Part shown: one piece after another, positions 17,378-24,361 of the stretch
Layout: every line of letters begins with the position of its first letter
Numbering within the stretch: position 1 is the first letter of the stretch
NCBI GenBank assembly: GCA_963675595.2
Contig: CAXXLZ010000001.1
Coordinates: forward strand, 320,001 to 384,000
DNA length: 64,000 bases
Direction: 5' to 3'
DNA from: Thermodesulfobacteriota bacterium
Lineage (GTDB): Bacteria > Desulfobacterota > Desulfarculia > JACQYL01
Translations under genes and position numbers: made by a program
Notes under the pieces: generated by a model
Seen by the model: only the letters and a program-made list of their open reading frames with translations
Told to the model about the DNA's origin: nothing
Databases searched by the model: none

Positions 17378-19253
17378 GATGAGTTCGTAAAAACCTCTCC
17401 GTAAAGGTATCTAGTTGAAAATATGAATAAAAATGGCATTTATGGGTTGACCTTTCTTTTGGGTCCTGTATGATAAGTATCTGACTTGATTAATAATATG
17501 GTCCTTAGGGGGGTTGTTTTGTTTCGGCCTAAGAGAACGCAAAAGACCATTTTCGACCACGATATTTGCCTTCCCGCAGACAGGATCGAGGCGTTGGAGA
17601 AGACGTGGGCCGGTCCGTTCCGGCGCCTGGTGCTTCCCATGATCGATGAGGAGTCTTTCCGGCCTTTCTACTGTGAGGACAACGGCAGGCCCAACAGACC
17701 CGTGGCCATCCTTGTCGGAGCGTGTGTTTTGAAGGAAATGAACAGCCTGACCGATGCGGAAGTCTTGGGCGCTCTGGACTTCGATCTGCGTTGGCAATAT
17801 GCCTTCAACATCAACGCCTTTGAATCTCACGTCTGCCAGAAGACCCTGCACAATTTCCGGACCTTGATTACCGACAACAAGCAAGCGCGGAGCCTCTTTA
17901 CCGGAATCACGGACGCCATCATCGAGACGGCGGCCCTTAGCACGGACAAACAGCGGTTGGACTCCACACAGATCACTTCCAACATGGCTCATCTGAGCCG
18001 TCTGGGGCTCTTTACGCGCACCATCGAGGCGTTCTTGAAACGGCTCCATAAGAAACATCCCAAGTTGTATGAGAAACTGCCCCGACTTTACGACAAGGCC
18101 TACTTGAAGCGCGCAGGCTATTTTGCCGATGCAAAATCATCGCGGGCCAAGCGTCGTCTGGACAAGTCCGCCCGCCATCTCGCCGACCTGGTGGACCGCT
18201 TCCGAGGTCATCCGGAAATCAGCCGAATGAAAGAATACCGGCTGATGGCCCGACTACTGTCGGAGCAATGCCGTTTCACCGAGGGAGATCCCGACAAAAC
18301 AGAACTCGAGAAGCCCAAGGAAATCCCTGCGGACTCCCTGCAGAATCCTTCGGATCCCGACGCCACCTATGGGCGCAAGGGCAAAGGATATAAGGCTTCC
18401 CTCACGGAGACCTGCGTGAAGGAAAATCCCTTCCAGGTGATCACCGATGTGGACGTGGCCCCTTCCTATGACAGCGACCAGAAAGACGTGATGCCCGTTA
18501 TCGAACGCCTGGAGGAAACGGGCCGCAAACCCGAAGAGTTGTTCGCCGACGCAGGCTACGGCAGCGGCGAGAACATCCTTCAAGCTCACGAGCACGGAGT
18601 CGAGCTTACCGCTCCGGTGACTTGCGGAAAAGCGCCGGATCTCAATAAGATGCAGTTGAGTGACTTTGAAACGAACGAGGACTGCACCCAGGTCGTTTAC
18701 TGTATCCGGGGGCACGCGCCACTTGAATGCAAGATCGTTGACCGCGGCAAAGCGGTGGAAGCCGTGTTTTCCCGCGAGCACTGTCTCCTATGCGAATTTC
18801 TCCCCATCTGTCCGGTAAAACGGATCAAGGGCGGAAATTATCGACTGAAGTACAAGCGCAAGGACATGGCGACCTCCAAGCGCAGACTACAGCAGGAAAG
18901 CCATGATTTCAAAGAACGCTACAAAATCCGGTCCGGCATCGAGGCCACCATCTCCGAAGCGGATCGGGTCACGGGATTGAAACGATCGTGGACCCGAGGC
19001 AAAAAACGGGTCACCTTATCTGTTTTCATGAAGGCCCTGGCCATCAACATCAAGAGGTTCGTCCAGAGCCGCCTTGATAAGGCCAAGAAGGCCCTTTCCA
19101 ACTCGATAGAGGGAGGCAGCAACGATAATTTCCGTCGTCTTTGTAGCCTATGTCACGATGACAGTAACCTTGGCAGTGTTGCAATGGCCGCTTGAACTTC
19201 CAATGCTCCAAAAAACAGCCCTGTTCGTAAAGGGGGGTTCTTACGACGGCATC
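17378..19253 (+). mobile_element. IS1182-like insertion sequence
   Basis: Imperfect TIRs GATGAGTTCGTAAAAACC / GGTTCTTACGACGGCATC; flanks AATGTT / AATATT. Confidence 0.75.
17486..19195 (+). CDS. IS1182-like DDE transposase
   Basis: NGRP, RLDST, SDPDATY, ADAGY, Cys cluster and YKIRSGIEAT motifs; exact start uncertain. Confidence 0.85.
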   Translation: MINNMVLRGVVLFRPKRTQKTIFDHDICLPADRIEALEKTWAGPFRRLVLPMIDEESFRPFYCEDNGRPNRPVAILVGACVLKEMNSLTDAEVLGALDFDLRWQYAFNINAFESHVCQKTLHNFRTLITDNKQARSLFTGITDAIIETAALSTDKQRLDSTQITSNMAHLSRLGLFTRTIEAFLKRLHKKHPKLYEKLPRLYDKAYLKRAGYFADAKSSRAKRRLDKSARHLADLVDRFRGHPEISRMKEYRLMARLLSEQCRFTEGDPDKTELEKPKEIPADSLQNPSDPDATYGRKGKGYKASLTETCVKENPFQVITDVDVAPSYDSDQKDVMPVIERLEETGRKPEELFADAGYGSGENILQAHEHGVELTAPVTCGKAPDLNKMQLSDFETNEDCTQVVYCIRGHAPLECKIVDRGKAVEAVFSREHCLLCEFLPICPVKRIKGGNYRLKYKRKDMATSKRRLQQESHDFKERYKIRSGIEATISEADRVTGLKRSWTRGKKRVTLSVFMKALAINIKRFVQSRLDKAKKALSNSIEGGSNDNFRRLCSLCHDDSNLGSVAMAA

Positions 19254-19332
19254 AATATTGCCAAGACTTCGGAGAATCAACGGCAACAGGTAGTATCTGG
19301 AATTCTTCGTGCTTTGTTGGTATTTGTTCACA

Positions 19333-19445
19333 CCGTTTCCGGGGGGACATCGTTCACCCGGACCCCCAGTTGCGCTTTTGCGAATCGCGTACGCGATTCG
19401 CAAAACGAGCAGCATGTGCCGTACAATTTATTAAAATACCTAAAG
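19333..19445. repeat. Modular REP-like repeat with a perfect 30-bp palindrome (19376-19405)
   Basis: TTTTGCGAATCGCGTACGCGATTCGCAAAA; homologues at about 24965-25040, 25720-25795 and, inverted, 38640-38715. Confidence 0.8.
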
Positions 19446-19997
19446 TTTCCTATGTGGCCTCAAATCAAGCCGAAATTGAATAACCTTTTCCTATTCGCGC
19501 CCGAAGCGCCAAGTACGCATGCGATGCTAAAACGAAGATGCCGCCATTTGCAGGACGCTGCGAATACAGCCAAACTTTAGCCGCGGCCACCCTCGCTGTT
19601 ACCGAATCGGCTTGAGGCACGGGACCCACCTCAAGTAGGGTCCCGAGCCGGTTGAGTCCGGTTAAACGTGTTTCGGGGGCTTCACGCCTGGGTTGCTTGG
19701 AGACGAAATTCAAAACACCGCTTTTCCAGGGTCAATCGCCACAAAATAAGGGCGAGTTTTCGTGCCAATGCGCAGATGGCCTTTTGGGGAAGACCCGTTC
19801 GACCCAGGAGTTTACGATAATGCAATTCGGCCGCCGGATCTTTGGACTTCCACGTCCAGGCCGCCTCCACCAACAGGCTCCGAAGCCGCGTCTGCCCCAC
19901 CGGATGAAGCGCTCCTCGGAATTTCCGCTCTCCGCTTTGTCGCACCAATGGGGCGAGTCCCAAGTAGCTGGTGACCTCCTCCGCCCGGAGAAACCGA
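19446..19997 (-). pseudogene. 3' remnant of an IS1111-group element (C-terminal recombinase plus complete right end)
   Basis: EEVTSYLGLAPLVRQSGE...RLQATQA homologous to 23026-24114; right end TTGAGGCCACATAGGAAA conserved. Confidence 0.88.
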
Positions 19998-20307
19998 TCA
20001 AATACGAGTCGATGAAGGAATTGCTGGACGGATTGCGAACCTACTTCGAATATTGCAGCAACCACCGGCCCCATCAGACTCCGAAGGGAAAAACTCCGGC
20101 GGGAAGTCTACCGGGAGACGGCCACGGTCCGGGATGCGGCTTGATGAAAGGGAAAACGACCATCCACAAGGTTGGCCTCGCCTCGCCTGAGCGGCGCAAG
20201 GCTCCGCTCGGCTCGGCCAACTTCCGCAACGCGGATACTGGGCTTCGACCCAAAACAATACACCTTTATTCTCCGGAAAAATTGGTACTAACCTTGGGGT
20301 CCACTTC
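19998..20307 (+). pseudogene. IS3-family transposase C-terminal remnant with probable right end
   Basis: YESMKELLDGLRTYFEYCSNHRPHQTPKGKTP resembles an integrase-core C-terminus; end TGGTACTAACCTTGGGGTCCACTTC. Confidence 0.6.
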
Positions 20308-22887: not shown

Positions 22888-23025
22888 GTTGGTCGACTCC
22901 GGGACCCGATAGGGTGTAAGCGTGAGGGAGAGAGGTTTGTATTCATTTGCCGGGGGAAATACCATGTTGGCCTCAGGTGCTCGATCGTTATGATGGAGCA
23001 TCACCCAAACAGAAAGGAGACCAAC

Positions 23026-24114
23026 ATGGTAGCAACGAAAGTAACAGAATTGGCCAAGTTTTTGGAGCTGGATATCGACCGTGATTTCCACGTCGGGATC
23101 GACGTACACAAAAAGAGCTACCACGTGGCCGTGCTTCGCAGCGACGGCGAGGTGAAGACTTTTGTGTCCTCGGCCTCTCCGGAGGCCATCGTGGCCATGT
23201 TGCTCCCCCACTTGAGGCGCATCCGAGCCGTAGCCTACGAAGCGGGGCCCACCGGCTTCGGCCTTGCGCGCACTTTGGCCAAAGCCGGGTTCAGCGTGAT
23301 CGTGGTGGCGCCGAGTCGGGTCCCTAGGCCGGTGACTGCGGGGGCCAAGACCGACCGCCTGGATTGCATGCGGTTGGCGGACCATGCCGCCCGAGGGATA
23401 TTGAAGTCCATCGCCGTTCCCACGGAGGAAGAGGAGGCCGAACGCAGCGTAATTCGCCGTCGGCACGATCTGGCCGACGGCACTCGACGCGTTAAGCAGA
23501 GAATTCAATCCCTTCTGCTGTTTCACGGTGTGGAGGCGCCTCCCGGGCTCAATCATTGGGGCCGAAGCGCTGTGGCGCAACTTCGAAAGCTTCGTCTGCC
23601 GAAGGAGGCCAAAGCGACGCTGCTCAGCTTGCTCCGTGAGTTGAATTTCCTCACAAAGGAAAAAGCCTTCATGGAGGAAAGGACTTCCAGTGTGTGCGAG
23701 AAACCTGAACACTTTGAGGAAATGCGATGCCTTCGAAGCGTCCCCGGGGTGGGTCCCATCACAGCGGCTACCTTCCTCCTGGAATTGTTTCGCCCGAGTC
23801 GGTTCCATCGGGTGGAGGAAGTGACCAGCTATCTGGGACTCGCACCGTTGGTAAGACAAAGCGGAGAGCGGAAATCTCGAGTGGCGCTTCCTCCCGTGGG
23901 TCAGACGCGACTGCGGAGTCTGTTGGTGGAGGCGGCCTGGACGTGGAAGTCCAGGGATCCGGCCATTGATTCGCATTATCGAAAACTCCTGTCGCGAACG
24001 GGCCTTCCACAAAAGGCCATTTGTGCGTTGGCACGGAAACTGGCCGTTGTTCTATGGCGATTGACCATGGAAAAACGGACCTATGAATTTCGTCTCCAAG
24101 CGGACCAAGCATGA
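23026..24114 (+). CDS. IS110-family DEDD recombinase
   Basis: VGIDVHK, YEAGPTG, KTDRLD, SVPGVG and QSG motifs; RBS AAGGAG. Confidence 0.95.
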   Translation: MVATKVTELAKFLELDIDRDFHVGIDVHKKSYHVAVLRSDGEVKTFVSSASPEAIVAMLLPHLRRIRAVAYEAGPTGFGLARTLAKAGFSVIVVAPSRVPRPVTAGAKTDRLDCMRLADHAARGILKSIAVPTEEEEAERSVIRRRHDLADGTRRVKQRIQSLLLFHGVEAPPGLNHWGRSAVAQLRKLRLPKEAKATLLSLLRELNFLTKEKAFMEERTSSVCEKPEHFEEMRCLRSVPGVGPITAATFLLELFRPSRFHRVEEVTSYLGLAPLVRQSGERKSRVALPPVGQTRLRSLLVEAAWTWKSRDPAIDSHYRKLLSRTGLPQKAICALARKLAVVLWRLTMEKRTYEFRLQADQA

Positions 24115-24119
24115 GCCGG

Positions 24120-24325
24120 TTAGGACTTGTTTAGGAGAACCCAACCGGCTCGGGACCCATACTTGAGGTGGGTCCCGAGCCTCAAGCCGGGAGAAAAAAG
24201 CGGAGACGGCCGCGATAAAGTTTGGCTGCATCGGTAGCGCTGGGGAAATGGCGGCATCTTCGCTTCTACATCGCATGTGTACTTGGCGCTTCGGGCGCGA
24301 ATAGGAAACGGTTATCCAATTCCGG
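24120..24325 (+). ncRNA. Candidate bridge/seek RNA in the IS1111 right end
   Basis: Hairpin at 24149-24179; internal loop at 24185-24227 with segments matching the insertion site; conserved in remnant 19470-19680. Confidence 0.6.
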
Positions 24326-24361
24326 CTTGACTTGAGGCCACATAGGAAACTTTCGAGAAAG

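Follow-up and report, generated by a model that had tools for sequence, protein, structure and literature searches.

The best described systems close to the locus analysed here are the IS1111 elements with seekRNAs, among them ISEc11, ISKpn4 and ISPa11 (Siddiquee et al. 2024, PMC11187229), in which, according to the published description, the RNA lies downstream of the transposase gene and the match to the target's top strand stands 5' of the match to the bottom strand. The subterminal inverted repeats of IS1111 elements have been given as 7-17 bp long (PMC11208160). Natural redirection by exchanged target-matching bases has already been published for the pair ISEc11 and ISXne4 (PMC11187229), and large-scale concordance between guides and targets has been published for IS110 (PMC11208160). 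Solo small-RNA modules are known from the IS110-family element ISPpu9 of Pseudomonas putida KT2440, whose ssr9 copies lack the transposase gene (PMC12288879), and the listed literature on orphan or non-autonomous bridge RNAs holds nothing closer than ISPpu9/ssr9.

In this study, we analysed a stretch of 64,000 nucleotides (the window) from a Thermodesulfobacteriota bacterium, which contains a truncated IS1111 relative and an intact sister element. The former is very probably a dead 5'-truncated IS1111 remnant of an IS species other than the intact IS, which is present in eight copies, and it would retain a structurally complete seekRNA/bridge-RNA gene with a target address of its own. As in the seekRNA elements described in PMC11187229, the intact sister encodes a DEDD transposase with PF01548 and PF02371, and a long downstream non-coding region, subterminal inverted repeats, the same order of guides and overlapping matches at the insertion point are found. 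Unlike those elements, of which they are distant sequence relatives only (best genome match 55% at the amino acid level), the two copies belong to a lineage of their own with a 5' extension of about 96 nt that carries a hairpin, and the remnant, whose RNA is predicted, is truncated and immobile by itself. The two copies resemble ISEc11 and ISXne4 in being a related IS pair with a conserved RNA stem and differing target-matching bases that fit the respective flanks. However, ISEc11 and ISXne4 are full-length elements with both flanks known (PMC11187229), whereas the variant described here lacks its left flank, the right half-site AAACTTT is common to both copies and the difference lies mainly in the left guide. 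The bridge RNA of IS621 likewise has a target loop and a donor loop, each with bottom- and top-strand pairing strands overlapping at the core (Durrant et al. 2024, PMC11208160), but it is located in the left end with the bottom-strand guide 5' and its core is CT, whereas here the RNA is in the right end, the guide order is reversed and the core appears to lie within AAA; by its position and guide order, the RNA is not of the IS621 type. The ssr9 modules share with the remnant the absence of a transposase gene, but they circularise and propagate, and Ssr9 is reported to be unneeded for transposition (PMC12288879), whereas the remnant is a single truncation relic without a left end. In principle, little is added to what has been published for the IS1111 family, in which RNA-guided target choice and retargeting by guide changes are both on record.

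The truncated element and its intact sister

The remnant, its surroundings and the reference element comprise the following features:

19438-19445, minus strand: right flank CTTTAGGT, by repeat matches the right half of a modular repeat
19446-19997, minus strand: 5'-truncated IS1111-type element, consisting of a C-terminal transposase remnant and a complete right end
19446-19450, minus strand: right terminus GGAAA, which includes the putative shared core AAA and is invariant in 12 elements
19455-19462, minus strand: right subterminal inverted repeat TGAGGCCA, read from the sequence
19685-19999, minus strand: transposase remnant of 105 codons, equivalent to residues 258-362 of the intact protein, without the DEDD domain and without a start
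20000-20146, plus strand: relic of an integrase-core type transposase, 5'-truncated, head to head with the IS1111 remnant and 82% identical to G000:C2:1572927-1573226
22960-24349, plus strand: intact sister IS of 1390 bp, used as reference, with transposase gene (23026-24114; PF01548 and PF02371), right guide (24215-24223) and left guide (24240-24249)

Read from 19997 to 19446 on the minus strand, the remnant aligns to the 3' part (about 555 nt) of the intact IS at 81-82% nucleotide identity, and 88 of the 105 residues of its protein (84%) are identical to those of the sister; homology and truncation, both observed directly, agree with the original prediction of a truncated IS1111 relative. 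The reading frame ends in a TGA stop codon (19684 to 19682) and matches PF02371 only, over profile positions 27-86 of 87. In place of a complete DEDD transposase, the remnant retains 105 C-terminal codons with a partial PF02371, and judged from these features it is a member of IS1111 by descent and not a functional member. Its non-coding right end measures 236 nt from the stop codon to the end of the IS, compared with 235 nt in the intact copy, which is the long non-coding region downstream of the transposase gene expected of IS1111. Of the subterminal repeats, only the right one (19462 to 19455) is kept.

The intact transposase is 362 aa long and scores 57.9 bits for PF01548 (DEDD) and 78.8 bits for PF02371, both over the curated cut-offs. 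Eight near-identical copies of this IS, 99.2-100% identical, were found in the genome. The 8-bp subterminal inverted repeats of the copy in the window, TGGCCTCA at 22968-22975 and TGAGGCCA at 24333-24340, are of the IS1111 kind. All eight copies read GGGG(G)AAA - TACCATGTTGGCCTCA ... TGAGGCCACATAGGAAA - CTTT (here and below, a spaced hyphen marks the point of insertion or joining). They thus sit at GGGG(G)AAA - CTTT, mostly within a hairpin stem, and in five of the eight the joined flanks rebuild a hairpin of the type GGGGGAAACTTTC(G/T)...AAAGTTTCCCCC. GGAAA occurs twice, as the last bases of the left flank and again at the right end of the IS, an arrangement in which a shared core and a duplication are indistinguishable without an empty site for every copy; the core appears to fall within AAA. 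Taken together, the subterminal repeats, the downstream non-coding region and a putative shared core within AAA give this IS the hallmarks of IS1111. In the circularised intact IS (24327-24349 joined to 22960-22965), TTGACT of the right end and TACCAT of the left end, 17 nt apart, would form a predicted junction promoter. Junction promoters are of a known type for the IS1111 family. CTTGAC is nearly invariant across the 12 related elements; the remnant reads TTGATT.

Because the copies differ by about 19% overall, the remnant and the intact IS are best regarded as two related IS species. Genome-wide, 19446-19997 is the sole copy of its kind, and a full-length copy of the variant was not found in its own genome. 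A DNA search of 60 relatives likewise found no full-length variant, the best matches outside the own genome being 67-74% identical with one 36-nt match at 87%. Neither was one found in 95 genomes of the class, 401 genomes of the phylum, viral contigs and the 13 metagenome loci, where the patterns used for the 13 loci and the 95 genomes required a spacer of at least 25 nt and so missed ends of the own type, whose right end has 24.

The neighbourhood is a patchwork of IS relics. The remnant abuts the integrase-core relic at 19998-20000, and the open frame at G000:C2:1572927-1573226 has a weak rve_3 match (23.8 bits, under the Pfam cut-off of 26.5). On the other side lies a multicopy DDE-type IS (window positions 17486-19260, also given as 17486-19195) with a 569-aa transposase matching DUF772, DDE_Tnp_1 and DDE_Tnp_1_6. 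The genome has many further matches, 97-100% identical, to the 60-65 nt at the right end of this IS.

Guide positions and RNA layout in twelve related elements

The set of relatives included a full copy in genome G047, a copy in genome G015 and 13 metagenome loci with a common right-end scaffold. We left out L035 (same insertion as L034) and L019 and L045 (same as L038) as duplicates, and L032, L033 and L036, in which the loop is cut by the contig end. Twelve elements were kept, 10 of them with a left flank (the left end of L039 was traced separately); these counts of 10 and 12 overstate independence, as L041 and L043, and L042 and L022, are close kin. A protein-based locus search of the genome contigs found distant relatives only, with 36-55% amino acid identity, and these were excluded from the guide analysis. 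The 12 elements, which have identical donor ends but 12 guide pairs between them, define a small environmental clade of the IS1111 type whose guide positions, helices and registers are readable directly.

Each relative has its own short segments at the same two loop positions, and each of the 12 elements has its own guide pair. The left guide, six variable bases on the 3' strand of the loop, agrees with the six left-flank bases before AAA at 50 of 60 positions in 10 elements, while permuted pairings give a mean of 19.5 and a maximum of 44 (0 of 20000 reach 50). The right guide, read as the reverse complement of the 5' strand, agrees with the first six right-flank bases at 65 of 72 positions in 12 elements, against a mean of 38.4 and a maximum of 56 in permuted pairings (0 of 20000 reach 65); four registers were permitted in this test and the controls were given equal freedom. 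A free-offset test of the right guide had a high background (6.58 for cognate pairs vs 5.15 of 9) and was superseded by the one confined to the loop strand. The left guides of L041 and L043, GACAAA and GATAAA, are told apart by one base, and the identical base change is found in the left flank. Guide positions are thereby observed directly, from covariation in the relatives. Two short target matches, top-strand 5' of bottom-strand, overlap at the insertion point, as in seekRNAs, and both guides cover the AAA core.

On the minus strand of the remnant, the parts of the RNA gene are:

19616-19649: 5' hairpin, rich in G+C, of the lineage-specific extension, shared by the two own copies (intact: 24147-24181)
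19598-19608: variable linker GATTCGGTAAC 5' of the target loop
19583-19587: 5' strand GCCGC of the outer stem of the target loop, pairing with 19544 to 19540 (helix 1)
19572-19580: right (top-strand) target guide CTAAAGTTT
19557-19570: inner hairpin of the target loop (helix 2)
19546-19555: left (bottom-strand) target guide TCCTGCAAA followed by T, at the loop position that covaries with the left flank in the relatives
19540-19544: 3' strand GCGGC of the outer stem, from covariation and RNAalifold
19487-19516: putative donor-binding loop with GTACTT, the hairpin GGCGCTTCGGGCGC (helix 3) and AATAGGAAA

Alignment and RNAalifold give a common layout, in which the outer stem GCCGC/GCGGC encloses a 5' loop strand, a hairpin of 4-5 bp and a 3' loop strand ending in AAAT, and a second loop follows further downstream round a hairpin of the type GGCGC...GCGCC. 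The helices are observed as covariation. Helix 1 has compensatory changes at 2 of 6 pairs with 93% of cells paired, helix 2 has changes on both sides at 3 of 4 pairs, and helix 3 has five double changes at one pair. Over the named structure, 94.3% of cells are paired vs 24-53% with the partners slid, and both-side changes occupy 22 cells vs 6.8 +/- 2.3 in shuffles (0 of 500 as high). A single-sequence fold of the intact RNA gave the same target loop; the single-sequence fold energies of the loop region were not better than those of shuffles, and two of the four ranges folded cut the outer stem and are uninformative. Rfam covariance models gave no match between 19000 and 25000 at E up to 1.

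In all 12 elements, ATAGGAAA of the second loop (within AATAGGAAA, 19495 to 19487) is identical to the final 8 bases of the IS. The joined ends contain AAATACC, to which GTACTT, or the GGTACTT of most relatives, is complementary bar one core base, and the mismatch falls on the middle core base in every element. A pairing of the donor loop with the joined ends is thus putative, and covariation lends it no support as the donor ends are invariant in the set.

The extension of about 96 nt 5' of the target loop is a feature of the own lineage. In 6 of 10 relatives it is absent, as the loop stem follows the stop codon after 2-22 nt there, and the other four have 53-143 nt in this place that did not align to it. 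Within the extension (24147-24199; 19649-19598 on the minus strand), a G+C-rich hairpin of 13-14 bp presents the loop CTTGAGG, which is complementary to CCTCAAG just downstream and identical to the CTTGAGG of the right end that overlaps the right subterminal repeat. A possible long-range helix CAAGCCGR/YCGGCTTG is represented by CAAGCCGG/CCGGCTTG in the intact IS and by CAAGCCGA/TCGGCTTG in the remnant, with one compensatory change between two sequences only.

The original prediction had drawn the RNA differently, as an IS621-like target loop closed by AGCC/GGCT, with the left guide GATTCGGTAAC (intact GGGAGAAAAAA) 5' and CTAAAGTTT 3', and with a left flank of about TTCGGTAA. What speaks for this layout is that the segment has strongly diverged between the two copies and that CCGGGAGAAA of the intact copy (24187-24196) resembles the left flank CCGGGGGAAA of three of the eight copies at 9 of 10 positions, a likeness that we treat as coincidence plus a structural CCGG and that our preferred model leaves unexplained. 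However, 6 of 10 relatives, with at most 22 nt between stop codon and loop stem, have no such segment and yet inserted site-specifically with a guide match elsewhere. GGCT, which together with AGCC and GCG/CGC had been named as the conserved scaffold, is the 5' strand of the inner hairpin and covaries in 12 elements with a downstream partner instead (helix 2), and AGCC may belong to the long-range helix. TTCGGTAA also fits the left half of the modular repeat at 5 of 8 positions, worse than TCCTGCAAA with 7 of 9. We therefore consider this layout highly improbable. The replacement of GGGAGAAAAAA (24189-24199) by GATTCGGTAAC (19608 to 19598) is a real difference, but it lies outside the conserved loop and is not a guide. 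Because covariation of guides and flanks in the relatives places the left guide at 19555 to 19546, the predicted left flank TTCGGTAA is replaced by TCCTGCAAA. The case shows that a guide loop may be misplaced when only two copies are used to infer it.

Predicted target addresses of the remnant and the intact IS

The right guide CTAAAGTTT (19580 to 19572) is the exact reverse complement, 9 of 9, of the junction AAACTTTAG (19448 to 19440), which consists of three core bases of the IS end (AAA) and six flank bases. This directly observed match had been recognised from the outset, though as a match to the flank, 3 of the 9 bases being the IS's own AAA. It could be argued that the match arose by chance or reflects only the terminal bases of the IS, with no bearing on targeting: three of the nine bases are terminal bases of the IS, and 7 of the 9 are common to the intact guide and its sites. 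We regard this as hardly credible, for all six flank bases match in the register that also gives each of the 11 other elements 4-6 of 6 against its own flank, whereas non-cognate pairs average 3.0 of 6. The target information of the right guide resides in the six flank bases CTTTAG only, and one guide base differs from the intact one (C vs A). Because seven bases (AAACTTT) are common to the intact guide ATAAAGTTT and its usual site, the two elements share nearly one address on the right side.

The left guides differ at 5 of 6 variable positions, TCCTGCAAA(T) at 19555 to 19546 in the remnant vs CTGGGGAAA(T) at 24240-24249 in the intact copy, in a scaffold that is otherwise well conserved. With the left flank of the remnant lost, this guide is placed by the relatives and not by its own flank. 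The predicted target of the remnant is TCCTGCAAA - CTTTAG, a 15-mer that the modular repeat, TCCTAAAAA - CTTTAG, fits at 13 of 15 positions. Genome-wide, nothing fits this 15-mer at 0 or 1 mismatch; five sites do so at 2 mismatches, and three of the five belong to modular repeat copies (TCCTAAAAACTTTAG and the like). The repeat consensus agrees with the left guide at 7 of 9 bases only; if the left flank of the ancestral insertion resembled the repeat consensus, the guides would have matched 7 of 9 left-hand and 9 of 9 right-hand bases, and the eight intact copies, with 7-9 of 9 on the left, include 7 of 9 in their range. Candidate target sequences for comparison are CTGGGGAAACTTT and, as the site of the orphan RNA, TCCTGCAAACTTTAG.

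The remnant ends in ...CACATAGGAAA - CTTTAGGTATTTTAAT, the right half of a modular repeat other than the hairpin site of the intact copies. This repeat has nine uninterrupted copies in the genome (...GGGCTCCTTCC(T/G)AAAAACTT(C/T)AGG...), the flank of the remnant gives many blastn matches, and AAACTTYAGGT occurs six times in the window vs 1.37 expected. A search for the left half near the remnant turned up only the intact repeats, two in number, at roughly 25.0 and 25.8 kb. The claim that the remnant occupies a different site from the intact copies therefore holds, the right half of the modular repeat vs GGGG(G)AAA - CTTT.

With the guide positions set by covariation in relatives, we consider the retargeting real, because the modular repeat agrees with the predicted target TCCTGCAAA - CTTTAG at 13 of 15 positions. 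In the preferred reading of a dead remnant with a complete RNA gene, the element would have lost its left end and the catalytic two thirds of its transposase, while the right end would have kept a structurally complete seekRNA/bridge-RNA gene with two internal loops. The target loop would be closed by GCCGC/GCGGC with a 5-bp hairpin between its strands, and the 3' strand TCCTGCAAA, equal to the top strand of the left flank plus core, would pair with the bottom strand. In the donor loop, GTACTT and AATAGGAAA would match ...ATAGGAAA - TACC..., the joined ends of the IS. The address of the ancestral element was probably about TCCTGCAAA - CTTTAG, which fits the repeat TCCTAAAAA - CTTTAG where the remnant sits, and the intact sister would be aimed at CTGGGGAAA - CTTT. 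We infer pairing of the RNA with these sites when the element originally inserted, a lost left flank that resembled the repeat consensus, and a remnant that is inert today.

The idea that guide divergence retargeted the element thus stands insofar as the guides differ and the right guide fits its own flank at another site, but the left guide had been misassigned. To call the pair a snapshot of natural reprogramming overstates the case, as two IS species with about 19% overall difference are compared and each of 12 elements has its own guide pair. The change of address is real but unremarkable, the right guide of the original prediction is correct and the left one misplaced, and activity in trans is unsupported.

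The orphan RNA beside an intact transposase

An orphan RNA beside a closely related intact transposase in one cell is a natural test of whether a relic can act in trans. No RNA data set is listed as covering 19432-19997; the two data sets on the list are contig collections from a single study, probably that of the source sample. The RNA might be alive, that is, transcribed and loaded in trans onto the resident intact transposase, steering circles of the intact IS into the modular repeat. Its three helices and two loops are all intact, the strands of the donor loop equal those of the intact copy bar one base just 5' of GTACTT, and an RNA derived from the non-coding region has been reported to support ISEc11 transposition in trans (PMC11187229). 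However, none of the eight intact copies sits at a site of the orphan type, and all nine full copies of the modular repeat are uninterrupted (empty). A promoter-like site lies in the left end of the intact copy, whereas the remnant has neither this end nor this site; the only promoter-like match upstream on its strand is about 440 nt away, in a count at the level of chance (1 found, 0.7 expected), and the -35-like hexamer of its right end is weakened (TTGATT vs TTGACT). A living orphan RNA is accordingly very improbable. Should it, against this expectation, be expressed and used by the transposase of the eight-copy IS, a broken element would add the modular repeat as a second address for a living IS, a natural case of trans-reprogramming by a relic.

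Several further loci were seen beside the main set. A related IS in G015 (L022; G015:C23:1-2465, about 500-957) is reduced on its contig to the C-terminal part of the transposase and a complete guide RNA. It directly follows the end of an IS3-like transposase gene, and its homology starts no more than a few codons away from the breakpoint in the window; the contig begins inside the IS3-like gene, and the copy may be interrupted instead of truncated. On a metagenome contig, a relative with its own guide pair (L044:42-1642) lies at ...CCCCCTTTCAAA - GACTTTTAACG, and its left flank holds a ...GAAAAGTTTCCCCCC... module resembling the hairpin repeat of the own genome. From this it seems that related IS insert at differing places within modular repeats of a similar kind.

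Outside the window, a left end of the intact IS survives alone as a relic (G000:C2:3813470-3813542) that comprises about 66 nt plus ATG at 97% identity, followed by unrelated sequence; neither of the two left guides, intact or orphan, fits the left flank ...GCAGCACGAAA of this relic. At about 4378300-4382700 of the same contig, repeats ending in ...CCCCGCGTGTGCGGGGGAAAC follow each other at a spacing of about 61 nt, as in a CRISPR array; no IS copy was seen there, and the end of the repeat resembles the target half-site GGGGGAAAC of the intact IS.
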